DNA of 64,000 nt from positions 160,001-224,000 of the IMG/VR virus record IMGVR_UViG_3300021431_004524; one strand, given 5' to 3'. The notes below the pieces were generated by a model, which had not been told where the DNA came from, ran no database searches, and saw only the letters and a program-made list of their open reading frames with translations. Both the position numbers and the translations under genes were made by a program. Below are positions 4,731 to 35,162 of the stretch, in pieces (position 1 is the stretch's first letter; the number at the start of each line of letters is the position of its first letter). The DNA is from a virus (lineage: Duplodnaviria; Caudoviricetes).

Positions 4731-4750
4731 CAAAAATTAACTGAGATTAT

Positions 4751-4781
4751 TTTGTAATCTCTGTTTTTTGTAGTATCTTTG
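4751..4781 (+). promoter_or_regulatory. sigmaA-type promoter overlapping a terminator-like hairpin
   Basis: TTTG 4751-4754, 19 nt, TATCTTTG 4774-4781; GAGATTA/TAATCTC stem plus T-run overlaps it. Confidence 0.7.
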
Positions 4782-4802
4782 CATAAAATTTATAATTAGT
4801 GT

Positions 4803-7836: not shown

Positions 7837-7905
7837 CTTGTTACTATTTATGTGTTTTATTTTATATAAATAAATATATTATTTAACAATCTTTAAGACA
7901 AATTA

Positions 7906-7937
7906 TTTGGTCATTTCAGATAATAATAGTACCTTTG
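7906..7937 (+). promoter_or_regulatory. sigmaA-type promoter
   Basis: TTTG 7906-7909, 20 nt, TACCTTTG 7930-7937. Confidence 0.8.
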
Positions 7938-7964
7938 CATCGTTTTTATTAATGTACATCAATT

Positions 7965-8207
7965 ATGAAATTAATTAATTTAATTGGCGGATTTTTACAT
8001 CAACATTTTGAGGATTTTACCAAGCCTCTTGTTCTAACTCTTGCGTTTTTTGGAATTCTATTTGCAGTTGTCGGACATTATGGTACTATTGGTTTTAATC
8101 TGAAATGGTTTTTATTTTTTGAATTACCTTTATATCTGTTCTGTATATGGGCTTTATATGTGACATATAAATTATATAAGAAAGCGAAGAAATTTAACAA
8201 AAATTAA
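7965..8207 (+). CDS. Small membrane protein (2 TM, basic C-tail)
   Basis: Two hydrophobic segments and a KKAKK tail. Confidence 0.6.
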   Translation: MKLINLIGGFLHQHFEDFTKPLVLTLAFFGILFAVVGHYGTIGFNLKWFLFFELPLYLFCIWALYVTYKLYKKAKKFNKN

Positions 8208-8216
8208 CAGAAAATA

Positions 8217-8248
8217 TTTGGTACTTTTAAAAATTCATAGTATCTTTG
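8217..8248 (+). promoter_or_regulatory. sigmaA-type promoter
   Basis: TTTG 8217-8220, 20 nt, TATCTTTG 8241-8248. Confidence 0.8.
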
Positions 8249-8278
8249 CACACAAATTAAGTAAAAAATATAAAAACT

Positions 8279-10574: not shown

Positions 10575-10593
10575 CACTTTTTAACGAAAATTA

Positions 10594-10625
10594 TTTGGTA
10601 GTGTGGAAAATTTGTATTACCTTTG
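10594..10625 (+). promoter_or_regulatory. sigmaA-type promoter enclosed by an 11-bp inverted repeat
   Basis: TTTG 10594-10597, 20 nt, TACCTTTG 10618-10625; ATTTGGTAGTG/CACTACCAAAT. Confidence 0.75.
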
Positions 10626-10698
10626 CACTACCAAATTTGGAAAGAGAGAATTAAAAACAAAAGTTTAACAAAAAAAAAGTAAATTAATAAAAAGAATT

Positions 10699-15626: not shown

Positions 15627-18600
15627 ATGGCTAGAAACAGTGAAATATTTTTAGGCGGTGATAATAGCACGCTTATATACTTAGGAGAAGAAGAGCATAA
15701 GATTTATCTTGGCTCTGACCTTGTTTATCAACCTAAGATTAGTATCGCAAGTGCAACTGTTTCCGTCGGTTCAAAAACATATAATGGAAGTAAACAGACT
15801 GCTTCATCAATCACTGTCACCATTTCTGGCAAAACACTTACAGTAGGTGAAGATTATCAGATAACATCTAATAGTGGTGGAACCAATGTTGGTAATTATA
15901 CTGTTACAGTAACAGGTATTGGGCTTTATAAGGATGCCGCTTCTGGAACATTCACGATTAATAAGGTAACTCCTACTGTAACAGCCCCAACAGCAAAAGT
16001 TCTGACTTATAACGGTTCAGCACAGGTTCTTGCAACCGCCGGAAGTACTAATTTTGGTACTTTAAAATACAGTCTTGATAATAGTACTTGGCAGACAGCG
16101 GTTCCTGCCGCCACAAACCAAGGCAGTTATACCTTATACTATAAGGTGGATGGTGACAGTAACATCAATAGCGTGGCTGCTAAGAGTATTACTTGTTCGA
16201 TTAATGCAAAACAAGTGACAGCGACTGTCGAACTTAGTCAGACAAAATACACATATAATGGTTCTGCTTTTAAGCCCACTGTTACGGTAAAGGATGGTAG
16301 TACGGTTATTCCGGCTTCTGAATACACGGTTACTTATAGTAATAATGTAAATGCAGGTACGGCAACAGTAACAATTAATGATAATACAGGCGGTAACTAT
16401 GAGGTTATAGGTTCAGCCGACTTTACAATTAATAAAGCTGCTGGAAGTATCAGTTATGAAACTACAACCGTAAATAAAACCTATGGCAATAGTGCCTTTA
16501 CTAATGCATTGACAAAAACCGGTGATGGTAGCGTAACATATTCTTCAAGTAATACAAATGTCGCAACAGTAAATTCTTCCGGTCAAGTGACAATTAAGGC
16601 TGCCGGTTCAGTAACTATTACGGCTACTGTTACTGACGGTACTAATTACGCATACGCAACAAAAACTGCAAGTTATACACTAAGTGTAGCTAAAGCGACA
16701 CCTACGGTTACTGCACCTACGGCTAAAAACCTTACATATAATGGTGGTGCTCAGACGCTTATTAATGCCGGTTCTACTACTGGTGGAACTATTCAATATA
16801 AACTCGGTACAGGTAGTTATAGTACTTCTTTACCTTCTGCAACGAATAAGGGAAGTTATACAGTATACTATAAAGTTGTTGGTAATTCAAATTACAATGA
16901 TGTGGCTGAAGCAAGCGTTACGGTTGAAATTAAGGCTAAGGCACTTACTATTACAGCGAAAGACCAAACAGTTTCTTATGGTACTGCAATCACACAAGGT
17001 ACCGGACAAGTTACGGTTAGTGGTTTGGTAAGTGGTGATACTTTAACTGCAATTACGCTTACTCAGAGTACTGTTAATGTAACGACAACCGGTACAATCA
17101 CACCATCTGCTGCCGCAACGACTAATGGTATCGGTAACTATAGTGTTACCTATACAAATGGTAAATTGACAATTACAGCCGTTGAACCAATTAAGACAGA
17201 CCCTGTTAAGATAGGTAATCTTACATATAATGGCAGTGCTCAGAACCTTGTTACGGCAGGCACAAGTAGTCATGGTACTTTTAGTTATAAATTGTCTACT
17301 GCAAGTACATATGGAAGCAGTATTCCGACCGGTACGAATGCAGGAACATATAGTGTTGATTGGAAATTCGTTGCTGATGCCAATCACGGCGGCGGAACAG
17401 TTACAGGTACTATAACAAATATTTCAATTGCACAGAAATCGCTTACTATTGCTGCTAAAAAGCAAAGCGTTGTATATGGTACTGCAATCACACAGGGTAC
17501 AAACCAAGTTACCGTTACTGGTTTAGTATCAGGCGATTCATTAACTGCAATTACGCTTACACAAAGCACGGTTAATGTGACAACAACCGGTACAATCACG
17601 CCATCTGCTGCCGCAACGACAAAGGGTATCAGTAACTATAGTGTTACTTATGACACTGCAAATCTGACAATTACACAGAAAGCACTTACGATTACAGCAA
17701 AGGCACAGACAGTAAATTATGGTACTGCAATTACACAAGGTACAGGCCAAGTTACTGTTACAGGTTTGGTAACCGGTGATTCATTAACTGCAATTACGCT
17801 TACACAAAGCACGGTTAATGTGACAACAACCGGTACAATCACGCCATCTGCTGCCGCAACCACAAACGGCATTAGTAACTACTCAGTAACATATAATACT
17901 GGTGTACTTACAATTAATAAGGTTTCGGCAAGTGTTACAAAAAAGCCTACTGCTAAGTCACTGACTTATAATACAGAGGCACAAGCCCTTGTAAATGCTG
18001 GTACTGCTAACGGTGGTACAATGTATTATCAGATGACCACATCTAATAGCAAACCAACTAACACAAGCGGATTCAGTGCAACAATACCAACCGGTACGAA
18101 TGCAGGAACATATTATGTATGGTATTACGTAAAAGGTGATTCTAACCATACTGATACTGCAATAAGTGAAACTGCTGTTACTGTGACGATTAATAGTAAG
18201 GCTATTGTTATTCCTACTCCTACGGGTGTAGAGAAAACATATGATGGCACTGCTGCAAGTGCAACATTCAGTGCGGCAACAGGTGCAACAATTACTAAGT
18301 ACAGATATTCAACTGATAATAGTTCATGGACTGAATCAAGTTCTAACCCAATTCAGACGAATCATGGTACTTTATACACACAAGCTTATTATACGGCTTC
18401 GGCAAACTATACTGGTAGCGGATGGTCTTCAAGTGCTACTATCTCGATTGCCAAGGCAGCTCCAACATATACCGCCCCAACTGCTAAGACAGGACTTGTT
18501 TATAGCGGTTCAGCGCAAGCATTGCTTAATGCTGGCTCGACAAGTCATGGTACGATTCAATATTCATCTGATAATACCAATTGGGGTACAACTATACCAA

Positions 18601-21600
18601 CCGGAACAAATGTCAACACATACACAAGTTATTGGCGTTTAGTTGGTGATAATAACCATACTGATGTGTCATCTAAGAGTCTGAGCACATCAATCGGTAA
18701 GGTAACTCCTACTGTAACGGCCCCAACTGCCAAGTCACTTACTTACACGGGTTCTGCTCAGACATTGGCAAATGCCGCATCTACTAACTTCGGTACATTG
18801 CAATACTCCTTGGATGATACCAATTGGAGTACAACTATACCAACAGGAACGAATGCCGCATCTTATACAGTATACTATCGTGTAGTCGGTAATAGTAACA
18901 TCAATGACGTTGCTTCTGATAGTATTACGTGTAGTATTGGCAAGGCTGCCGGAAGTATCAGTTATGCGACTACAACCGTAGATAAAACCTATGGCAATAG
19001 TGCCTTTACTAATGCATTGACCAAGACCGGTGATGGTTCAGTTACCTATTCTTCAAGCAATACAAGTATTGCAACTGTGAATACTTCCGGTCAAGTTACA
19101 ATTAAGGCCGCAGGTTCAGCAACTATTACGGCTACAGTTACTGACGGTTCTAACTACACATACGCGACAAAGACTGCAAGCTACACATTGAATGTGGCCA
19201 AGGCTAATCTAAGTGCGTCGGTATCTATGGACGGATGGACTTATGGCGGCACTGCTAGTAGCCCATCAGTAAGTGGTAATAGTGGCGGTGGCTCAGTAAC
19301 CTATTCTTATAAGGTTAGTGGGGCTGCTGACTCTACTTATACAACTACAAAGCCAAGCAATGCGGGTAATTATGTGGTACGTGCTGTTATTGCTGAAACC
19401 GCAAACTATAATGGCGCAACAGTTACCAATACATTCACTATTGCAAAGGCTAATCCGGCATATACAGCACCAACCGCTAAGACATTAACATATAACGGTT
19501 CGGCACAAGCATTGCTTAACGCCGGTTCTACAAGTCATGGTACGATTCAGTACTCTTCAGACAACAGTACTTGGGGTACGTCTATTCCAACTGGTACAAA
19601 TGCCACATCTTACACAAGTTATTGGAGACTTGTAGGTGATAGCAACCATAAAGATGTGTCATCTAAGAGTCTGAGCACATCAATCGGTAAGGTAACTCCT
19701 ACTGTAACGGCCCCAACCGCCAAGGTTCTGACTTATAACGGTTCTGCTCAGACATTGGCAAATGCCGCATCTACTAACTTCGGTACATTGAAGTATAGCC
19801 TTGATAATAGTACTTGGCAGACAGCGGTTCCTTCCGCTACAAACCAAGGCAGTTATACCTTATACTATAAGGTGGACGGTGACAGTAATATCAATAGCGT
19901 GGCTGCTAAGAGTATTGCATGTTCTATCAACGAGAAAGAAGTAACGGCAACAGTTACATTAAGTCAGTCGACATATACATATAGTGGTAGTGCTTGCACG
20001 CCAACAGTTACTGTGAAAGACGGTAGTACGGTTATTCCGGCTTCTGAATACACGGTTACTTATAGTAACAATGTAAATGCGGGTACGGCAACAGTAACAA
20101 TTACCGATAATACAGGCGGTAACTACAATGTCACAGGTTCGGCAACGTTTACTATTAACAAGGCCAATGGTAGTGTGACTATCAATGCAACTGCACCTAC
20201 TTATACAGGTAATGCTCAGAGTCTTGTTACTGTAAGTGGTAATACGGGTACAGTACATTATAGAGTTGGCACAAGTGGAAGTTGGACAACTACAATTCCT
20301 ACTGGAACCGGTGCCGGCAATTATACCGTATATTGGTACATGGATGCATCATCAAATTATAAGGCACTTAACAGTTCTTCAAGTCCGGCCAGTGTTGCTG
20401 TAACAATCGCCAAGGCTAATCCATCATATGAAGCCCCAACTGCTAAGACAGGACTTGTTTATAGCGGTTCGGCACAAGCATTACTTAATGCGGGCTCGAC
20501 AAGTCATGGTACGATTCAGTACTCTTCAGACAACAGTACTTGGGGTACGTCTATTCCAACGGGCACAAATGCCACATCTTACACAAGTTATTGGAGACTT
20601 GTAGGTGATGGCAACCATAAAGATGTGTCATCTAAGAGTCTGAGCACATCAATCGGTAAGGCATCCGGCATTGCGGGTGTTTCAAGTAGAAGTCTTTCAT
20701 ACACTCGCGGTGCTCAGAACCTCGTAACCGTAAGTGGTAATACGGGTACAGTACATTATAGAGTTGGCACAAGTGGAAGTTGGACAACTACAATCCCAAC
20801 TGCTACTAATGCAGCAACATATACTATATACTATTATGTAGATGCTTCTACGAACTACAATGGTGTAGGTTCAAGTAGTAGTCCTAATAATGTAAGCACT
20901 ACAATCGCTAAGGTTACTCCGGTACTTTCTACAAGTCCTTCGTTGAGAACCGGTTTGAACTATACAGGTTCTGCACAAAATCTTCTTAGTGGTGGTGCAA
21001 TGAAACATAGTAGTTCCGATACCACTTCAGTCGCAGGTACATTCACTTATACTCAGAAAACCAATGCCGGAACATATACTGACCCTACTTGGTCGTTTAC
21101 ACCAACAGATACAACTAACTATAATTCAACAAGTGGTAAGATAACAGGCAGTGTGACAATCGCTAAGATTAACCCAACATATAATGCTCCAACCGCCAAG
21201 TCTGGACTTGTATATAACGGCGTATCTCAGACATTGTATAATGCAGGTTCTAACACAACAGCGGGTGAGTTCTCTTATACTAGCGGTACAAGAAAGGATG
21301 CCGGCAGTCAGACTGTAAGTTGGACATTCACGCCTACCGATACCACTAACTATAATACAAAAACCGGTTCATTTGGCGTAACAATCGGACAGAAAGAAGT
21401 AACACTAAGTTGGGGTACACTTTCTTGGACTTATGACAAGAAGGAACACTCAACAACATGTACTGCCGGTAGTCTAATATCGGGTGATACGTGTTATGTA
21501 ACTCTCACAGGTAATTCAATTACCAATGTCGGAACAGCCACTGTTACAGCATCTGAATTGGGTAATAGTAACTATAAGCTACCATCAGCAAATACTAACA

Positions 21601-22904
21601 CACTTACAGTAAGTGCAAGAACGGTTACTCTTACTTGGGGTACGACTTCTTGGACTTATGACAAGACGGCACACTCTACTACGTGTACATTGGGTAATGT
21701 TGTAAGCGGTGATACGTGTACAGTTACTTTAACAGGTAACTCTATCACTGATGTCGGTTCAACAACTGTCACAGCAAGTAGCCTAAGCAATAGCAACTAT
21801 GCATTGCCATCAAGTAAGACCGCAACACTTACAGTGACAGCAAGAACGGTTACACTTACATGGGGTGATGTCACGTGGGTATATGACGGTGCAGCACACA
21901 GCACAACATGTAAAGCAGGAAACCTCGCAAGTGGTGATACATGCACTGTGACACTTAGTGGTAATAGTATAACCAACAAAGGTACGACAACTGTCACAGC
22001 AAGTAGCCTAAGCAATAGCAACTATGCATTGCCATCAAGTAAGACCGCAACACTTACAGTGACAGCAAGACAAATCAATGTTACGGCAGGTTCTACCTCT
22101 AAGACCTATGACGGTACTGCTTTGACATACAATAGTGCAACAGCAGAGTCTACCGGTACTAACAGAGGTCTTGTAAGTGGCCATTCTATGACTTCTTGCA
22201 CAGTCACAGGCACAATTACCACCAAGGGTTCTGCCGATAATACACCAAGTTCTGCTGTTATTAAGAGTGGTAGTACAGACGTTACATCAAACTATAGTAT
22301 TACTTACGTTAAGGGTTCGCTTACCGTTAATGCAAGGGCTGTCACATCTACGGCTACTGATGAGTCATGGACTTATGACGGAAATGCACATAGTGCTTCT
22401 AACACGGGTACTACGACTAACTTGCCAACCGGCCATACAGCAACATACACTTGCTCAGGTAGTATAACCAATGCAGGTACAGCCACTAAGACATTGAGTA
22501 GTGTCGTTATCAAGAACAGTGGTGGAACTGATGTATCGTCAAGTTTCACAATAACAAAGAATAACGGTACGTTAACAGTTACTAAGGCAAATATTACTCC
22601 ATCAGTCTCTATGAATGGATGGGTATGGGGTGAAACAGCACAGAGTCCTTCTGTAAGTGGCAATAGTGGCAGTGGCGTAGTAACCTATACATACAAGTAT
22701 CCTGGTACAAGTACTTATACTTCAACTGCTCCGGTTTCTAAATCAGATATCGGTACATATACAGTTAAAGCCTCTATTGCTGAATCAACAAACTACAACG
22801 CAGGCGAAGCAACCAATACATTCTCGATTATTACGAACTTCAAACCAAGTGGTTCTGATGCTTTAATAACATCTAACGGCCAATACTTCGAAGTTAGTAC
22901 TTAA
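15627..22904 (+). CDS. Giant T/S/G-rich Ig-like repeat adhesin or fibre protein (Big_2/MBG-like modules)
   Basis: 2425 aa of roughly 75-90-aa beta-rich modules; YSSSNT.VATV...G.VT (Big_2) twice; near-identical internal DNA repeats. Confidence 0.75.
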   Translation: MARNSEIFLGGDNSTLIYLGEEEHKIYLGSDLVYQPKISIASATVSVGSKTYNGSKQTASSITVTISGKTLTVGEDYQITSNSGGTNVGNYTVTVTGIGLYKDAASGTFTINKVTPTVTAPTAKVLTYNGSAQVLATAGSTNFGTLKYSLDNSTWQTAVPAATNQGSYTLYYKVDGDSNINSVAAKSITCSINAKQVTATVELSQTKYTYNGSAFKPTVTVKDGSTVIPASEYTVTYSNNVNAGTATVTINDNTGGNYEVIGSADFTINKAAGSISYETTTVNKTYGNSAFTNALTKTGDGSVTYSSSNTNVATVNSSGQVTIKAAGSVTITATVTDGTNYAYATKTASYTLSVAKATPTVTAPTAKNLTYNGGAQTLINAGSTTGGTIQYKLGTGSYSTSLPSATNKGSYTVYYKVVGNSNYNDVAEASVTVEIKAKALTITAKDQTVSYGTAITQGTGQVTVSGLVSGDTLTAITLTQSTVNVTTTGTITPSAAATTNGIGNYSVTYTNGKLTITAVEPIKTDPVKIGNLTYNGSAQNLVTAGTSSHGTFSYKLSTASTYGSSIPTGTNAGTYSVDWKFVADANHGGGTVTGTITNISIAQKSLTIAAKKQSVVYGTAITQGTNQVTVTGLVSGDSLTAITLTQSTVNVTTTGTITPSAAATTKGISNYSVTYDTANLTITQKALTITAKAQTVNYGTAITQGTGQVTVTGLVTGDSLTAITLTQSTVNVTTTGTITPSAAATTNGISNYSVTYNTGVLTINKVSASVTKKPTAKSLTYNTEAQALVNAGTANGGTMYYQMTTSNSKPTNTSGFSATIPTGTNAGTYYVWYYVKGDSNHTDTAISETAVTVTINSKAIVIPTPTGVEKTYDGTAASATFSAATGATITKYRYSTDNSSWTESSSNPIQTNHGTLYTQAYYTASANYTGSGWSSSATISIAKAAPTYTAPTAKTGLVYSGSAQALLNAGSTSHGTIQYSSDNTNWGTTIPTGTNVNTYTSYWRLVGDNNHTDVSSKSLSTSIGKVTPTVTAPTAKSLTYTGSAQTLANAASTNFGTLQYSLDDTNWSTTIPTGTNAASYTVYYRVVGNSNINDVASDSITCSIGKAAGSISYATTTVDKTYGNSAFTNALTKTGDGSVTYSSSNTSIATVNTSGQVTIKAAGSATITATVTDGSNYTYATKTASYTLNVAKANLSASVSMDGWTYGGTASSPSVSGNSGGGSVTYSYKVSGAADSTYTTTKPSNAGNYVVRAVIAETANYNGATVTNTFTIAKANPAYTAPTAKTLTYNGSAQALLNAGSTSHGTIQYSSDNSTWGTSIPTGTNATSYTSYWRLVGDSNHKDVSSKSLSTSIGKVTPTVTAPTAKVLTYNGSAQTLANAASTNFGTLKYSLDNSTWQTAVPSATNQGSYTLYYKVDGDSNINSVAAKSIACSINEKEVTATVTLSQSTYTYSGSACTPTVTVKDGSTVIPASEYTVTYSNNVNAGTATVTITDNTGGNYNVTGSATFTINKANGSVTINATAPTYTGNAQSLVTVSGNTGTVHYRVGTSGSWTTTIPTGTGAGNYTVYWYMDASSNYKALNSSSSPASVAVTIAKANPSYEAPTAKTGLVYSGSAQALLNAGSTSHGTIQYSSDNSTWGTSIPTGTNATSYTSYWRLVGDGNHKDVSSKSLSTSIGKASGIAGVSSRSLSYTRGAQNLVTVSGNTGTVHYRVGTSGSWTTTIPTATNAATYTIYYYVDASTNYNGVGSSSSPNNVSTTIAKVTPVLSTSPSLRTGLNYTGSAQNLLSGGAMKHSSSDTTSVAGTFTYTQKTNAGTYTDPTWSFTPTDTTNYNSTSGKITGSVTIAKINPTYNAPTAKSGLVYNGVSQTLYNAGSNTTAGEFSYTSGTRKDAGSQTVSWTFTPTDTTNYNTKTGSFGVTIGQKEVTLSWGTLSWTYDKKEHSTTCTAGSLISGDTCYVTLTGNSITNVGTATVTASELGNSNYKLPSANTNTLTVSARTVTLTWGTTSWTYDKTAHSTTCTLGNVVSGDTCTVTLTGNSITDVGSTTVTASSLSNSNYALPSSKTATLTVTARTVTLTWGDVTWVYDGAAHSTTCKAGNLASGDTCTVTLSGNSITNKGTTTVTASSLSNSNYALPSSKTATLTVTARQINVTAGSTSKTYDGTALTYNSATAESTGTNRGLVSGHSMTSCTVTGTITTKGSADNTPSSAVIKSGSTDVTSNYSITYVKGSLTVNARAVTSTATDESWTYDGNAHSASNTGTTTNLPTGHTATYTCSGSITNAGTATKTLSSVVIKNSGGTDVSSSFTITKNNGTLTVTKANITPSVSMNGWVWGETAQSPSVSGNSGSGVVTYTYKYPGTSTYTSTAPVSKSDIGTYTVKASIAESTNYNAGEATNTFSIITNFKPSGSDALITSNGQYFEVST
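21762..22070 (+). repeat. Identical 84-bp direct repeat (21762-21845 = 21987-22070) inside the giant gene
   Basis: acaactgtcacagcaagtagcc...gtgacagcaaga occurs twice. Confidence 0.85.
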
Positions 22905-24610: not shown

Positions 24611-26599
24611 ATGGCAGTATTAAAATACAAAAATGGTTCGGGACAGTATGTTCCCATCTCAAATTATACCGTTCAGCCTATTGACCCCGTTCAAACGACT
24701 GGTAGTTCTACCACAGCAATTATGTCTCAGAACGCAGTTACGGTAGCCCTTAACGCTAAGGCAAACTCTGCTGATGTCTATACACAAACAGAGGCTAATA
24801 ACCTTATCTTTGGACAGAATACCGTTCCAAGCGGAACCGGTGCCGCAACAAACGTACAGCAACTTATCAATAAGACCGTCTATGGTACAACAACACCTTC
24901 TTCTGCTCAGAAAGAAGCAAACGTCGTAACAACTGAGAATCTTGCGACTACTCTTAGCGGATATGCAACAACAAGTGCCATCGCAGACTTCTTCGACGGT
25001 GCGGAATATACAAACGGTACAGGTACACTTGCAGGCAAGAAAGTAATTGCCTTCAAACATGGCTCTACTGTTAAGGTTCAACTCGATGCGACAGACTTCG
25101 TTAAGGACGGCATGCTTACAAATGCAGAAATAAAGGACGTTACCATCTCAGGACAAAGCGTTAAATGCCTTGTGCTTACATTCAATACCGATTCAGGTAA
25201 GAGCGACATCAATATTCCTGTTGAGGATATTTTTGATGCAAGCAACTATGTTGCAAAGGGTGAAGTTGATGAAATCGTCGCTGAGTCAGTGGCAGAAGCA
25301 GTGTCTCCTGAAGGAGGTACTCAAACAGAGGCTCAGAAAGCATTAACAGATGCGATTTCTGATGCCGTCGCAAAGGCTATCAAAGATGCTCTTGCTCCCG
25401 GTTCACAAGATACGACAGTTGTTCAGCAGATTGATAACACTATTACTAAGTATGTATATACACCTCAAGGTGGTAGCCAAATACAACTTACTGATGTAAT
25501 GACTGCAAGCCATACACATAGTAATATGGGTGTATTGGAAGGTATTACAGCAGAAAAGGTTAGTGCATGGGATAACGCATCTGCCGGTGGCGTAACTAAT
25601 GTTTCATATAACACGACTGACAAGGAAATTACTAAGACAGTAGGTGGAAAAACAACTTCAGTCGTAAGTGTTGCTACCTTGAAGACCGACATGAGACTTT
25701 CAAGCACAGATGTCGGCCTCGGTAACGTAGGTAACTTCAAGGCCGTTTCAACACTTGCAAACCAGGGACTTACTTCAGCAGAACAAGCAAATGCACGTGC
25801 AAACATCGGTGCCGGCACTTCTACATTCAGTGGTAATTACAGCGATTTGAATGGTAAACCTGCTCTCGGTGATGCCGCAGCAAAAGCCGTTGACACTTCA
25901 ATTGATGCTTCAAGTTCATCAACAAATATCCCAACTTCATCAGCAGTCGCAAGTTTCGTTGAAGGTAAGGGTTATTCAACCACTAATACAACTTATAAAC
26001 TTACTATCGGTGATACCACAAACGGTGATAGTGCTAACGGTGTAGACCTTGGTACACTTAAAAGCAAGGCAGCAGCCGCTTCAGGCACAGAGCTTTCACT
26101 TGTTACAACCGGTGAGAAGGATGTTTGGAACAACAAACAGGATGCTATTGCGTTCAACACTGCTTATAACGCAAACACCAACAAGGCCGCAACAATGAGT
26201 GATGTGCCAAAAATCGGTACAGCTGCCGGAACCGCATTTGACGGTGCTGACGGTGCTACTGCAAAGGCCGAAACAGATTTCTTGACAGGTTCTAACGGTA
26301 CAGACACGACTCCACTTACAAGCGTTGCAAATATTCCTGTCGACAAACGTCTTGTACGTGTAAATCTTAGTGGCGATGATAATTTCACCCTGGAAAGTTT
26401 ACCTGCTGCCGGACATGAAATACATATCATCGTTAAGGCAACTGACGCAGTTACAATTACCATACCATCTAGCACATCTGAGAATTTCTATGAGTGTCTG
26501 AATGACAGCACATCAATGAATATTGCAAGTGGCAAATACGGTGAAATCAACGTAATCTCAGATGGCGATAAAGCATATATCCGTTATCTTGGCGCATAA
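24611..26599 (+). CDS. Tail fibre protein
   Basis: G.STT..MSQ.AVT, SHTHSN, DVGLGNV, QANARANIGA, FSG.Y.DL..KP fibre motifs. Confidence 0.75.
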   Translation: MAVLKYKNGSGQYVPISNYTVQPIDPVQTTGSSTTAIMSQNAVTVALNAKANSADVYTQTEANNLIFGQNTVPSGTGAATNVQQLINKTVYGTTTPSSAQKEANVVTTENLATTLSGYATTSAIADFFDGAEYTNGTGTLAGKKVIAFKHGSTVKVQLDATDFVKDGMLTNAEIKDVTISGQSVKCLVLTFNTDSGKSDINIPVEDIFDASNYVAKGEVDEIVAESVAEAVSPEGGTQTEAQKALTDAISDAVAKAIKDALAPGSQDTTVVQQIDNTITKYVYTPQGGSQIQLTDVMTASHTHSNMGVLEGITAEKVSAWDNASAGGVTNVSYNTTDKEITKTVGGKTTSVVSVATLKTDMRLSSTDVGLGNVGNFKAVSTLANQGLTSAEQANARANIGAGTSTFSGNYSDLNGKPALGDAAAKAVDTSIDASSSSTNIPTSSAVASFVEGKGYSTTNTTYKLTIGDTTNGDSANGVDLGTLKSKAAAASGTELSLVTTGEKDVWNNKQDAIAFNTAYNANTNKAATMSDVPKIGTAAGTAFDGADGATAKAETDFLTGSNGTDTTPLTSVANIPVDKRLVRVNLSGDDNFTLESLPAAGHEIHIIVKATDAVTITIPSSTSENFYECLNDSTSMNIASGKYGEINVISDGDKAYIRYLGA

Positions 26600-26637: not shown

Positions 26638-27285
26638 ATGGCAAAATATACATATATTAAAAGAGATGCAGTAGGCTTTTACGTAGAACTTGATAAACTG
26701 CTTACAAGTGATTTGTACTCAGACCTTGGCACGACATGGGAAGACTTCATCGATTTCAAATGGGTTCTCCTTTCTGATGAACAGGTCGCATTCCATGAGG
26801 CTAATCCGGATGCGACAGTTCAGGAGGTTTGGAATATGCAACTTACCCCTCCTCACGTAAGGACTCTTGAAGAGGCAAAGGCTGAAATGATTCAGAGAAT
26901 CGATGAATATGACCGAAGTTCAAATATTAATGGCTTCACAGTTAATCATGAAATCGAAGGCTGGCTTACGGCAGATGAGAGAAGTAACTACCGTTCTTCA
27001 ATCGAATCGTCTGAATTGTTAGGTGTTGAGACACTTTCATTCTATGTCGGTGACTACCTTATGGAAGTAACGACACAGGATGCTAAGTATATGCTTGCAC
27101 AGATTCAGTTATATGCCGACCAGTGCTATATGGTAACGAAACAGCATAAACTTTCGGTTGAGGCTCTTGATACAATCGAGGCAGTTGATGCATTCGACTA
27201 TACAAGCGGTTATCCGCAGAAACTTAACTTCGAGGTTGAAACTGAGAATGTTGAGGAAGTGCCAAGTGAACCAGCAGGAGAGTAA
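26638..27285 (+). CDS. DUF4376-like tail-fibre assembly protein (paralog of 23379..24002)
   Basis: High similarity with patches of identical DNA. Confidence 0.75.
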   Translation: MAKYTYIKRDAVGFYVELDKLLTSDLYSDLGTTWEDFIDFKWVLLSDEQVAFHEANPDATVQEVWNMQLTPPHVRTLEEAKAEMIQRIDEYDRSSNINGFTVNHEIEGWLTADERSNYRSSIESSELLGVETLSFYVGDYLMEVTTQDAKYMLAQIQLYADQCYMVTKQHKLSVEALDTIEAVDAFDYTSGYPQKLNFEVETENVEEVPSEPAGE

Positions 27286-27417: not shown

Positions 27418-28693
27418 TTATGCCGATTGTGGTGCATATATCACAGCACGGACATTATAGTAAGATTTTTTATATAGAGTAGAGGTTATTTGTGCGGTAC
27501 TACCAGACCATTGTCCGCCATAGCATTTAGTGGCATCTGTTTCGCGCCCCCCCTAAAACCGGATAAAAATATTTAGTGGTATTAACACCCCATTTATTAT
27601 GTAGTGAAACAAGTGCTAAATGAGGACCGTCATAACTGGTATCATATCTATTGCAAATAATCCTTGCCATACTACCTGTTGGCAGACACCAGTCACCTTG
27701 ATTTGTCCCTGTTGTATGATATCTCCAACAGCACTGTGCCGCCGGATGTATGTATTGACTATTAGTTGTGTTAGTTATTTTACTTGCTGTTTTCCATGCC
27801 GTACTATTTGAATTATCTACTGCAAGTATTTTTGCTGATAATTGTTCCGGTGTATCACTGCCTGTCATTCCACCAATAGTATAGCCATCGCCACCGTAAC
27901 ATGGAGAGTTACTTGAAGAATTGCCGGCATTACCGGTATCTGGCGTATAATAAGACATCGTATTTAATGAATAATAATAGTCGCCACTACATTTAATTCC
28001 AATCGGTATTACACCAGATGGTATTTCTGTCATACTATATACTTTTTTATCTGAACATAGAATATTATTATACCATCCAGAATCTGCAGGATATTGACCA
28101 ATATACACATAAGCACTTTTATTAAGTGTCTTATGTGTTGCCCGTACAGAAACACTTCTGTATGAACCACTATAAAAATCTTCTGTGGCTTTTATGTATT
28201 GATAACGACCTGACTGGTTTGAAAAAGTAAGCCATGTTATGTTTTTGCCAAACGTCCAATTATAATCAGATGCCGTTCCATAACTAACGCTCACATATTT
28301 GGCATTCTCGTTTGGATTAACAAATGCCGCCAAAGATACAGCACCATAATTATTTACGTCGTGCAAAGTAAGTTTTACACTACCTTCATTTTGCGTAAGT
28401 TCTAATTCTACGGTTTCACCTTGATATGTAATTGTAACAGTGCCACTCCTACTATTGGCAATATCAGTATTTTCTTGATAGGATATTGAAATATATCCGT
28501 TACTTTTATAATATGATGCGGATGATATCCATGTTTCGCTTTTTGATACGGTAACGCCGTCATCTTTTAATAATTCTCCACCATAATATATATTCACAGT
28601 AAAACCACCGCTTGTACCGGATACCGTTTTTTGATTATATTCCAACGTTAAACCGTTTTTAGTTTCATTTATTAACAATTCTCTTCTTCTCAT
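27418..28693 (-). CDS. BACON-domain plus CLec-fold putative receptor-binding protein, frameshifted at a G7 tract
   Basis: Two BACON-like repeats (W.., R.G.V); GDWCLP motif; ORF stops at 27527, but removing one G from G7 (27547-27553) extends it to ...YYNVRAVIYAPQSA* at 27418. Confidence 0.7.
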
Positions 28694-28815
28694 TTAAAGT
28701 ATAGTATATATAGTTTTATTTTTTTTAATATATTTTATTAAAATTTGTATAATAGTCACTAATTATTAGTGACTATATATACTTTTTTATAAAAATGAGA
28801 AGAAGAAATTTGTTA
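28673..28815. repeat. Nested inverted repeats across a divergent intergenic region
   Basis: 23-bp IR with 2 mismatches (28673-28695 / 28793-28815) covering both ATGs; 12-bp IR (28703-28714 / 28772-28783); 25-bp palindrome 28752-28776. Confidence 0.85.
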
Positions 28816-30246
28816 TTTAGTGCCGGCAGTGTGTCACCGGATGGTATAACTTATGAATACGTTGACATGGGATTGTCCGTTAAATGGGCAACATTTGATG
28901 TCGGGGCAACAAAAGTCGGTGAATACGGAAAATACTTCCAATGGGGCGATATTCAAGGTTATGCTTCCTCAGAAGTAGGCTCAGGAGACGGTAAAAAGTA
29001 CTTTGAATGGAATGATTACAAATATTGTAATGGTAGTTATGACACCTTAACTAAGTACAATAATAATTCATCATATGGTACTGTGGATAATAAAACCGTA
29101 CTTGAATCAAGTGACGATGCGGCAACATTCAACATGGGTAAGGGATGGAGGATGCCTACAGAAGCAGAATACACTGAACTTATCAATGCATGTAATCAAA
29201 CTTGGGACAGTACAAATAAATGGCGTATATTCACGCTGAAAACTGATAGTACCAAGAAAGTTGTTTTTCCTGCTTCCGGCCTCGGCATCAGTGGTGGCCT
29301 CGGCGGCCGAGGTTATAGCGGCTATTTTTGGTCTTCGTCCCTTAGCACGTCGGACCCGGTCAACGGGCACTACCTCAGCGTGGACAGGAGCAATGGTGTC
29401 GTGTACAACAGCTACCGTTTCTACGGCTTCTGCGTCCGGGGCGTATATAGAGAACCAGGTAATCCAATGCCGCCAATGAGTGTGTTATTTGTAAACAAAA
29501 ACGATACGACACAGAAACAAATATTTGAAAAAAATAATTGGCCGTCAGCTTCCGATTGGACACCAATCGGTATCGTAGTTGTTCCTGCTTCACATAACCG
29601 CTATGGAGATAAAACGAATGGTATTATGTCACTTGGTTGTCTAAATACTGATGGTACGATGCAGACAACAGGAACGACAAATAATGTGACAATGCAGTGG
29701 GGTGGAATTGGAACAGACACTTCTCTGAGTAATTATACTACTTGTGATGGAAGTAATGAAAGAGGTTATCTTCAGTTCCAAGCCAATAGCAGTTCTACTG
29801 CCTTGTCATACGCTGACACACCTAATATAACATATCCATACACCGACCTAACTGCTACTGAGCACAACGTTATAAGCGTTGGCTCTTTAAGTGATTATGA
29901 CGGTGTTGGAAACACCAATATACTGAATGCTTCAGCATCAACGTACATTGCAGCAGCGGCTTGCAAGAAATTCAAGACAAGTGGCACAAGTGCTGGCGAT
30001 TGGTATCTTCCAGCTGCTGGTGAGTTGGCATATCTTCCAAGCATAAGGTATCAAGTGAATGACACGATAAGTGCATTGAATACTAAGTATGGTAATGTTG
30101 GTGTTCAGTTGGATACATATCAATACTATTGGTCGAGTTCAGAGTACAGTAGCGGCTACGCTTGGCTCGTGGCTATGGACAATGGTAACGTGGACGGCTA
30201 CGCTAAGAACAGCTACTTCTATGTTAGGGCGTTCTTGAGGTTTTAG
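28795..30246 (+). CDS. Tandem CLec-fold protein (Fib_succ_major/DUF1566-like), probable DGR target
   Basis: YVDMGLSVKWA..G.YFQWG, WRMPT..E, YFWSSS...GFCVRGV; second domain GDWYLPAAGEL, YWSSSE...YVRAF. Confidence 0.8.
   Translation: MRRRNLLFSAGSVSPDGITYEYVDMGLSVKWATFDVGATKVGEYGKYFQWGDIQGYASSEVGSGDGKKYFEWNDYKYCNGSYDTLTKYNNNSSYGTVDNKTVLESSDDAATFNMGKGWRMPTEAEYTELINACNQTWDSTNKWRIFTLKTDSTKKVVFPASGLGISGGLGGRGYSGYFWSSSLSTSDPVNGHYLSVDRSNGVVYNSYRFYGFCVRGVYREPGNPMPPMSVLFVNKNDTTQKQIFEKNNWPSASDWTPIGIVVVPASHNRYGDKTNGIMSLGCLNTDGTMQTTGTTNNVTMQWGGIGTDTSLSNYTTCDGSNERGYLQFQANSSSTALSYADTPNITYPYTDLTATEHNVISVGSLSDYDGVGNTNILNASASTYIAAAACKKFKTSGTSAGDWYLPAAGELAYLPSIRYQVNDTISALNTKYGNVGVQLDTYQYYWSSSEYSSGYAWLVAMDNGNVDGYAKNSYFYVRAFLRF
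29272..29445 (+). other. DGR variable-region-like segment VR1 (internal)
   Basis: Abrupt GC-rich patch rich in NNC codons (GGC, AGC, TAC, AAC, GAC, CAC, GTC) between fixed G, WSSS and R..G..VR codons. Confidence 0.65.
30124..30246 (+). other. DGR variable-region-like segment VR2 (C-terminal)
   Basis: TAT TGG TCG AGT TCA GAG ... GCT TGG ... AAT GGT AAC GTG ... AAG ... TAT GTT AGG GCG scaffold with NNC/NNT codons. Confidence 0.65.
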
Positions 30247-30343
30247 CCTCCTCGCTTTTGGAATATTAGTATTGAATTCTTCAATTTTATAAACAAAATT
30301 ATACATTAAGTGTATTATAAGACAAGAAATATTATTTATAATA

Positions 30344-30392
30344 AATCCCCATTAGACGAAATTGTTTGTTTTAATGGGGATTATATTTTTTT
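30344..30392 (+). terminator. Intrinsic terminator
   Basis: AATCCCCATTA...TAATGGGGATT plus T-run. Confidence 0.7.
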
Positions 30393-35045: not shown

Positions 35046-35101
35046 TACTAATAGGCAAAGACGCTGTAGTAACGTAATTTTAGTCTTTTTAACATAAAAT
35101 A

Positions 35102-35133
35102 TTTGTTTTATTCAAATAAATGTAGTATCTTTG
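35102..35133 (+). promoter_or_regulatory. sigmaA-type promoter
   Basis: TTTG 35102-35105, 20 nt, TATCTTTG 35126-35133. Confidence 0.8.
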
Positions 35134-35162
35134 CACTGTAAAACTTTAAAAACATATAAACG

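Follow-up and report, generated by a model that had tools for sequence, protein, structure and literature searches.

The gene at positions 28795–30246 of a 64,000-nt stretch of phage DNA (the window, positions 160,001–224,000 of the 235,653-bp IMG/VR record IMGVR_UViG_3300021431_004524, which is 34.6% GC) is very likely a fusion of two targets of diversity-generating retroelements (DGRs), elements in which a reverse transcriptase (RT) copies a template repeat (TR) into a variable region (VR) of a target gene. Each half of the predicted protein is a module that ends in its own VR: VR1 lies inside the gene and VR2 at its 3' end. The composition of the two segments and the way they vary among homologues make it highly probable that both have been written by a DGR. 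VR1 and VR2 have no DNA similarity to one another, and since their scaffolds are unrelated, one template cannot serve both and two TRs would be needed. To our knowledge, DGRs are the only natural system for rewriting a chosen patch of a protein at will. Bacteroidales carry many DGRs, and in the textbook case there is one VR per lectin domain.

Two lectin-fold modules in one gene

The features of the gene are as follows, in window coordinates.

28795..30246, plus strand: whole gene, a 483-aa open reading frame (ORF) for a candidate two-module adhesin or receptor-binding protein with the N-terminus MRRRNLL
28795..29445, plus strand: module 1 (aa 1–217), putative FISUMP-like domain of C-type-lectin fold, from a TIGR02145 match below cut-off and structure matches
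29281..29445, plus strand: VR1, internal, with hypervariable codons 163–212 (29281–29430), from a codon alignment with five DNA relatives
Up to 29445, plus strand: invariant GC-rich 3' scaffold of VR1, TGC GTC CGG GGC GT
29446..29478, plus strand: fusion junction and linker (YREPGNPMPPM...), placed where similarity to stand-alone module-1 genes ends
29455..30246, plus strand: module 2 (aa 221–483), predicted beta-rich domain plus Lcl_C/DUF1566 C-type-lectin fold, from PF07603, structure and homology to the DGR target of a related contig (G002, below)
30124..30246, plus strand: VR2, C-terminal, with hypervariable codons 444–476 (30124–30222), then conserved YVRAFLRF and the stop codon
30237..30250, plus strand: GAGG(T)/(A)CCTC hairpin across the stop codon, from DNA folding prediction

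The Pfam family Lcl_C (PF07603) matches the protein at 59.2 bits, which exceeds the gathering cut-off of 34.9, and matches it best over aa 381–479; a six-frame scan finds a second, weaker Lcl_C match at 29125–29442. Module 1 is called FISUMP-like only, and not a member of the family, because the FISUMP model TIGR02145 scores 31.8 bits over aa 43–217 (E = 2e-7), under the NCBIfam cut-off of 41.65. An AlphaFold2 model with a mean predicted local distance difference test score (pLDDT) of 89 has two folded halves and a low-confidence linker at aa 221–224. Structure searches with modelled aa 1–220 return TaqVP (Z 6.8), TvpA (2y3c, Z 6.5) and Mtd (1yu0, Z 5.9), together with FGE-like folds; the Z values for the predicted module are middling and the list of matches is coherent, TaqVP, TvpA and Mtd being three solved DGR variable proteins. 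A fimbrial protein of Bacteroides ovatus, 4eps, is the best match for aa 227–483 (Z 14.8; 20% identity, 185 residues aligned). The C-terminal domain of Legionella Lcl, 8q4e, matches at Z 10.3, with a root-mean-square deviation of 2.7 Å over 118 residues, and many C-type lectin domains also match. Both VRs close their own C-type-lectin-fold domain, which is the location expected of a VR in a DGR target.

An earlier, sequence-only reading of the window had described this gene as having two lectin-type domains, each ending in a compositionally distinct, NNC-rich segment, with a GC-rich internal VR1, a terminal VR2 and two scaffolds that are not alike. The ORF, domain and composition data bear this out, and its coordinates were accurate. 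It had also pointed to the small GAGG/CCTC hairpin near the end of VR2; the hairpin is there, though its folding cannot be told from chance (z = -1.38, with 22 of 200 shuffled sequences folding equally well), and neither the hairpin after VR1 (z = +1.3) nor the one after VR2 (z = -1.4) is significant. VR1 itself terminates in the invariant, GC-rich TGCGTCCGGGGCGT.

VR1 and VR2 vary in the manner of DGR targets

No other 120-nt island of the 235-kb record is as rich in GC as VR1 (0.63; the record mean is 0.346). Adenine makes up 15.8% of VR1 compared with 33% of the remaining gene, and the third codon position is C in 58% of VR1 codons, as opposed to 14–19% elsewhere in the gene, and A in 3.6%. 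As a scan word for DNA searches we used an A-free 18-mer from the middle of VR1, TTTTGGTCTTCGTCCCTT. In metagenomes it matched 38 contigs, among which L004, L015, L026, L017 and L035 are true relatives, with 79–90% identity to the gene across its first 650 nt. Among these five the scaffold codons of VR1 (GGC, GGT, GTC, TTT TGG TCT TCG TCC CTT, CCG, GGG, CTC, GTG, CGT and TGC GTC CGG GGC) are near-universally identical, synonymous sites included, the exceptions being a few codons that differ in L017 and a CTC for GTC in the window. Interspersed with the scaffold are about 30 codons that vary at positions 1 and 2, where three or four bases are found, while position 3 is kept as C or T.

The distribution of changes over codon positions differs accordingly between VR1 and the rest of the gene. 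Variable sites at the first, second and third positions number 27, 25 and 10 of 54 in VR1 and 40, 37 and 73 of 155 upstream (Fisher p = 6e-6). Third-position divergence between pairs is 2–7% in VR1 when L017 is left aside and 11–17% when it is one of the pair, compared with 12–31% upstream; at first and second positions it is 19–35% in VR1 versus 3–19% upstream. Eleven distinct proteins were compared at the amino acid level, a column of VR1 being counted as hypervariable if it holds five or more residue types. This is the case for 18 of 50 columns in VR1 versus 4 of 170 outside it. Residues that NNC codons cannot encode (K, E, Q, M and W) occur 2 times in 197 at the hypervariable columns of VR1, so that 99% are NNC-encodable; the dominant residues there are Y, N, S, G, D and R. 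These alignments imply that a conserved template rich in AAC overwrites VR1 again and again.

VR2 follows the same trend more weakly, with C at 45% and A at 3% of third positions. We tested it through a protein alignment of nine homologues with at least 72% identity and through comparison with the TR of G002. Hypervariable columns number 15 of 33 in aa 444–476 and 6 of 225 elsewhere, and 95.5% of the residues at the hypervariable columns of VR2 are NNC-encodable. Residue M461 varies among M, V and L, which matches an ATG read as NTG. In the verified TR of G002, AAC or AAT stands at 14 of the 15 hypervariable columns of VR2 versus 2 of 18 other columns. In VR1 and VR2 alike, variation is confined to sites of template adenine and ends in NNC or NNT, as judged against templates that for this phage we infer rather than observe.

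Ordinary diversifying selection, together with recombination between receptor-binding genes, might also give rise to variable tips without any DGR. The receptor-binding tips of phages are commonly under such selection, and no template for VR1 has been seen. This explanation meets four difficulties: third positions are fixed and the scaffold is identical at synonymous sites next to a flank with 12–31% third-position divergence; the residues are almost exclusively NNC-encodable; the VRs are depleted of A; and the variable columns of VR2 match the AAY codons of a real TR. We regard it as exceedingly improbable and close to refuted.

Both modules occur alone in related phages

The same sequence-only reading had raised the possibility that the protein was fused from two DGR targets, and this idea gains support from relatives in which either half stands by itself. 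Module 1 is the whole protein (214–224 aa) in L004, L015, L026, L017 and P0224–P0228. These stand-alone proteins stop two to four codons after ...CVRGV, with ends of the form CVRGVW(A/P)(G/K)-stop, and the blastn and tblastn similarity of the gene to L004, L015, L026 and L017 ends at its nt 650 (window 29444–29445), exactly where VR1 ends. L015 shows synteny with the window, sharing its downstream genes and its terminator hairpin, and thus represents the same locus without module 2. The hairpin is the following feature.

30342..30392, plus strand: terminator-like hairpin CCCCATTA...TAATGGGG and then a T run, which closes the gene (read from the sequence)

Judged from its recurrence after the stand-alone module-1 gene of L015, this hairpin is a conserved 3' border of the locus.

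Module 2 stands alone as a protein of 272–284 aa with its own MRRRxLL start in P0007, P0008, P0009, P0054 and P0059. In P0004, P0005, P0011, P0017, P0038, P0045 and P0049, module 2 follows another kind of N-terminal lectin domain, to which it is joined by the same PG-PMPPMSVLFVNK linker. Module 2 is furthermore homologous (37–46% identity) to the RT-adjacent DGR target of G002. Three fused proteins, P0001, P0002 and P0003, on contigs of 391,794 bp, 301,019 bp and 84,483 bp respectively, are 84–94% identical outside the VRs, 34–48% in VR1 and 55–58% in VR2. On the assumption that the fusion arose once, in a common ancestor, these values are most simply read as rewriting of both VRs, including the now internal VR1, after the fusion.

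DGR cassettes in the same phage group

A search with the tail sheath protein led to 27 related IMG/VR contigs. Four of these, G001, G002, G003 and G005, encode an RVT_1 reverse transcriptase with the DGR motifs IGNLTSQ and YVDD, and G011 also encodes a DGR-type RT. In each of the four a TR adjoins the RT and has its VR copy in a gene close by. Mismatches between TR and VR fall at A in 16 of 16 and 19 of 19 cases in G005, in all 20 in both G001 and G002, and in 9 of 12 in G003. The cassettes used below, and the gene of the window whose homologues accompany two of them, are as follows.

G005 (149,924-bp IMG/VR contig), 119,016–123,671: complete DGR, with the TR at 122,281–122,378 and the RT at 122,469–123,671
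G002 (282,357-bp IMG/VR contig), minus strand: target of 319 aa at 20642–21601, then the TR, then the RT, all on the minus strand
G011 (412,435-bp IMG/VR contig, rated complete), contig start: DGR with the VR at 79–233, the TR at 606–760, an Avd-like ORF and the RT at 1242–2474
Window, 26638..27285, plus strand: companion gene of 215 aa, with homologues directly upstream of the DGR target in G002 and G005 (tblastn synteny)

G005 is collinear with positions 21–154 kb of the genome that holds the window (genome positions are those of the 235,653-bp record) and belongs to the same jumbo-phage group. Its target of 844 aa has two tandem lectin modules, with an internal VR at aa 530–562 and a terminal one at aa 813–844, both of which differ from one TR at adenines only; in this clade an internal position does not keep a VR from working.

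The G002 cassette sits at a locus syntenic with the gene of the window, its module-2 homologue being preceded by homologues of window genes 24611–26599 and 26638–27285. The homologues of the 215-aa companion gene lie at 21640–22242 in G002 (55% identity) and at 118360–118950 in G005 (30%). TR and VR of G002 remain identical for about 30 nt beyond the stop codon. In G011, a 253-aa homologue of module 1 (44% identity) lies about 77 kb from the DGR if the genome is circular, and the G011 TR does not match it. Among these Bacteroidales phages of 280–410 kb, DGR cassettes shift between loci, and targets can be left distant from a cassette or without one.

Where the two templates and the RT could be

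CheckV estimates the record to be 60% complete. A protein identical to the 483-aa product (P0001) is recorded on the 391,794-bp contig, and 235,653/391,794 is again 60%. Taken together, these values give a phage genome of about 392 kb, of which about 156 kb (about 40%) is unseen; our searches of this phage for DGR machinery cover the 235,653 bp, about 60% of the genome.

The account that we favour, with a confidence somewhat above even, is that two independent DGR target modules were fused in frame, that the resulting gene codes for an adhesin or receptor-binding protein of the virion, and that the machinery lies in the unseen part of the genome. Module 1 would be a FISUMP-like lectin fold of about 220 aa with VR1 as its last 55 or so codons, and module 2 a DUF1566/Lcl_C lectin fold of about 265 aa with VR2 as its last 40 or so. 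Each VR would be written by mutagenic retrohoming: the RT would copy an AAC-rich TR into complementary DNA (cDNA), misreading template adenines, and the mutated cDNA would replace the VR, leaving NNC codons on an A-free scaffold. One RT might serve both templates, or each might have its own. The protein would display two lectin-fold binding faces, each randomised from its own template, presumably for use in adsorption. RT and templates would lie in the unseen 156 kb or so, at least 45 kb from the gene, and both VRs would still be open to rewriting. We put the chance that this phage retains the machinery at about even. To the more specific arrangement, in which a single phage-encoded RT at least 45 kb away uses two unrelated templates on two sites of one gene for combinatorial two-site diversification, we give slightly less than even weight.

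A number of results weigh against this account. Within the 235,653 bp, profile scans for RVT_1 and Avd (PF05635) returned no match, four RTs of this clade used as tblastn queries found nothing (best E 0.13), and no ORF of at least 150 aa matched a regular expression for DGR RT motifs. Both the word-7 blastn with the VRs and an ungapped 60-nt scan of both strands, in which mismatches at an A of the candidate template were forgiven, yielded self matches only, with no TR. RT, Avd and TR are thus lacking for at least 45 kb on one side of the gene and 188 kb on the other, as far as the record extends. The absence of an RT near the gene, remarked upon in the sequence-only reading, therefore holds throughout the 235 kb; the short-word BLASTN for template repeats and the profile search for a DGR RT that it had proposed came back empty over the same sequence. 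As to its suggestion of two different templates, the unrelated scaffolds would require two, and none was found in the record or in the fetched loci.

Searches beyond the record also failed to turn up a template of the VR1 type. The 18-mer matches in metagenomes included five VRs and no TR, and the TR1 deduced from VR1 had no match among all the loci fetched apart from VR1s and the low-complexity AAC runs in other TRs. The 18-mer had no match in IMG/VR and 8 matches in 185,579 GTDB species genomes, all in unrelated phyla and due to chance. A search for shorter proteins, as would be called from ORFs on a TR, gave five stand-alone module-1 proteins only, and the RT clusters contain no member from the 391,794-bp contig. 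Three loci found in IMG/VR with the VR2 scaffold pattern (L001–L003) were rejected as chance matches.

The sites at which relatives carry their cassettes are vacant here. The G005 cassette occupies a 10-kb interval, the counterpart of which (genome 133,288–135,419) is only 2.1 kb long and cassette-free, and the site of the G001 and G002 cassettes, which is the gene's own fibre/adhesin neighbourhood, is empty in this phage. The VR1 of the window has three or four deviations at non-A sites, in codons 169, 174, 198 and 201 (GTC to CTC, TCA to TAT, AGT to AGG and GGC to GGT), that are absent from most relatives and from the fused P0002; they could be a hint that no recent overwriting has taken place. 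In VR2, K471 (AAG, as also in the G002 TR) is almost invariant despite its adenines, a constancy that must come from selection.

On these grounds the VRs might be fossils of ancestral DGR writing, the RT and templates having since been lost and the patches being frozen and open to ordinary mutation only. The lack of RT, Avd and TR in the 235 kb fits such a loss, and so do the empty G005 site, the non-A scaffold changes in VR1 that most relatives lack, and the contrast at the locus itself, where the homologue in G002 is followed by TR and RT and the gene of the window by a terminator. We nevertheless consider it unlikely, if well short of negligible, that the VRs are fossils. As much as 40% of the genome is unseen. 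Neither L004 nor L015 has an RT or TR next to the gene, and still their VR1s differ in DGR fashion, as do those of all eleven VR1 homologues; machinery at a distance therefore seems to be normal in this subgroup. Third-position divergence in VR1, at 6–7%, is still well under the 12–22% upstream. The rate of non-A changes in the VR1 of the window is 2.4%, inside the range reported for active DGRs, in which such changes have a mean rate of 1.47% and are seen in 45% of VRs (PMC6642488).

The VRs could instead be rewritten in trans, from another replicon: a Bacteroidales host or a co-infecting phage resident in the same cell would provide the RT and two matching templates, which would act on the phage gene during infection, and the phage's diversification of host range would be outsourced. 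It is known that DGR components can work on distant targets and in trans (Wu et al. 2018, PMC5758913), tandem FISUMP-like proteins of Bacteroidales are 44–50% identical to module 1, and a VR1-type TR is on none of the phage contigs examined. This makes a source elsewhere conceivable, but the scan of 185,579 species genomes with the 18-mer, which gave chance matches only, revealed no host or foreign TR, and the relatives encode cassettes of their own. It has also been argued that a target apart from its DGR lacks co-inheritance (PMC5758913). We judge action from another replicon to be very improbable.

Relation to known DGRs

The DGR of Bordetella phage BPP-1 (Mtd, TR, Avd and bRT) resembles the system proposed here in having a phage receptor-binding protein of C-type-lectin fold as its target, in its AAC-templated NNC codons on an A-free scaffold, and in a domain-end VR with a GC-rich 3' end. 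It differs in having a single VR, immediately followed by TR, avd and RT, whereas the present gene has two unrelated VRs. Targets with several VRs have been reported. A survey describes a CLec1 target with three VRs, multi-VR targets being found in one of 372 DGRs (Wu et al. 2018, PMC5758913), and seven targets with two or three VRs are listed elsewhere (PMC11661182). Lectin-fold, DUF1566 and FISUMP targets, remote targets and internal VRs have all been described before (PMC5758913, PMC11661182), FISUMP domains being among the DGR targets reported in the second of these studies. Surveys detect VRs by their match to a TR (PMC5758913). The multi-VR targets share with the gene of the window the presence of several VRs, internal ones included, in one ORF, and an internal VR whose 3' recognition sequence lies inside the coding sequence. 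In contrast to VR1 and VR2, which belong to different lectin subfamilies, the VRs of G005 are duplicates that match one TR, and we assume the same of the cases in the surveys.

Closest at hand is the G002 cassette, in which the target is a stand-alone module-2 homologue at the same locus and the TR has AAY codons at the hypervariable columns of VR2. Unlike the gene of the window, which has module 1 in front and a terminator behind, the G002 target has no module 1 and is directly followed by TR and RT.

Two bacterial elements show features that the favoured account would require. The TvpA DGR of Treponema denticola has seven non-adjacent targets (PMC5758913, PMC6642488), and that of Stenotrophomonas sp. 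SKA14 has two TRs (PMC6642488). They are comparable in that targets can lie far from the RT and one element can have more than one TR, and TvpA matches module 1 structurally. They differ as bacterial chromosomal elements, with separate TRs that serve separate genes rather than two regions of the same gene. For DGRs associated with phages, almost all targets not adjacent to the RT were reported to lie within 50 kb of it (PMC5758913, PMC6642488); the nearest possible RT to the present gene is more than 45 kb away.

A parallel of another kind is the type V pilus tip adhesin BACOVA_04982 of Bacteroides (4eps), which is the best structure match of module 2 and, like it, a lectin-type adhesive tip from Bacteroidales. 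It is a bacterial pilus subunit and not a phage protein, and its likeness to this gene is one of fold. [quoted passage not shown]

In the DGR literature that we searched, there is no target with two unrelated VRs that require two templates, and such an arrangement in one gene appears not to have been described previously. Its interest is that DGR targets with no relation to each other, two in this case, can be joined in a single protein, with the 3' recognition sequence of the internal VR1 now within the coding sequence. If both VRs are active, one fibre protein would have two independently randomised binding surfaces, so that its repertoire multiplies rather than adds, and one genome must provide two templates, possibly to one RT. 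The gene offers a natural test case for what a DGR requires downstream of a VR and for the engineering of DGRs with several templates.

Neighbouring genes and the source phage

The divergent genes 27527–28693 (minus strand) and 28795–30246 (plus strand) both begin MRRR(E/N)LL (window 28664–28818), so that their first 21 nt or so form an inverted repeat across a 101-bp spacer. The same N-terminus starts the leucine-rich repeat (LRR) genes of L004 and L015, the stand-alone module-2 proteins and a gene at genome positions 154,588–155,643. From this distribution, MRRRxLL may be a shared docking or export peptide of interchangeable adhesins.

The product of 27527–28693, of 388 aa, has a weak match to BACON (22.3 bits, below cut-off). 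Its C-terminal part contains a GDWCLP motif, comparable to GDWYLPAAGEL in module 2, and is without the YWSS...VRAF end; to judge from its motifs, this could be a DUF1566 module that has been truncated or has decayed. The gene at genome positions 154,588–155,643 (minus strand), outside the window, is a third adhesin-like gene. It encodes 351 aa with the start MRRRNLL and a FISUMP-like C-terminal domain, matches Lcl_C at 30.7 bits (below cut-off), and has its 3' end within a GC-rich island; since K, E and M codons are present, it is less VR-like. The 19 nt just past its stop codon match sequence downstream of VR2. Further upstream in the window, an ORF of 2425 aa at 15627–22904 (plus strand) contains many diverged tandem repeats of about 225–990 nt at 15947–22501 (families D1–D8, D12 and D14), and is probably an Ig-like (immunoglobulin-like) repeat fibre or adhesin.

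The source is a very large gut or rumen phage. By its tail sheath, family B DNA polymerase and other markers in the record, it is a jumbo phage of the myovirus type; Pfam terminase models had no match in the 235,653-bp record, and the tail sheath was taken as the marker in their place. Among INPHARED phages blastn found no close relative, and tblastn only 26% matches to Lak megaphages. Protein patterns gave no close relatives in IMG/VR or the GTDB genomes, nor did a first scan of metagenomes with the linker pattern. Promoter-like repeats that end in TTTGC, weak matches to Prevotella Lak phages and the homologues in Bacteroidales point to a Bacteroidales host.

A 48-nt intergenic motif, TTAAC...TATTTGG...TAGTA(T/C)CTTTGCA, recurs in the window and resembles the TAnnTTTG type of Bacteroidota promoter. 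Its copies lie at the following positions.

423–470: 48-nt motif
4737–4784: 48-nt motif
7893–7940: 48-nt motif
8204–8251: 48-nt motif
10581–10628: 48-nt motif
35089–35136: 48-nt motif

Judged by this resemblance, the motif is probably an early or middle phage promoter.

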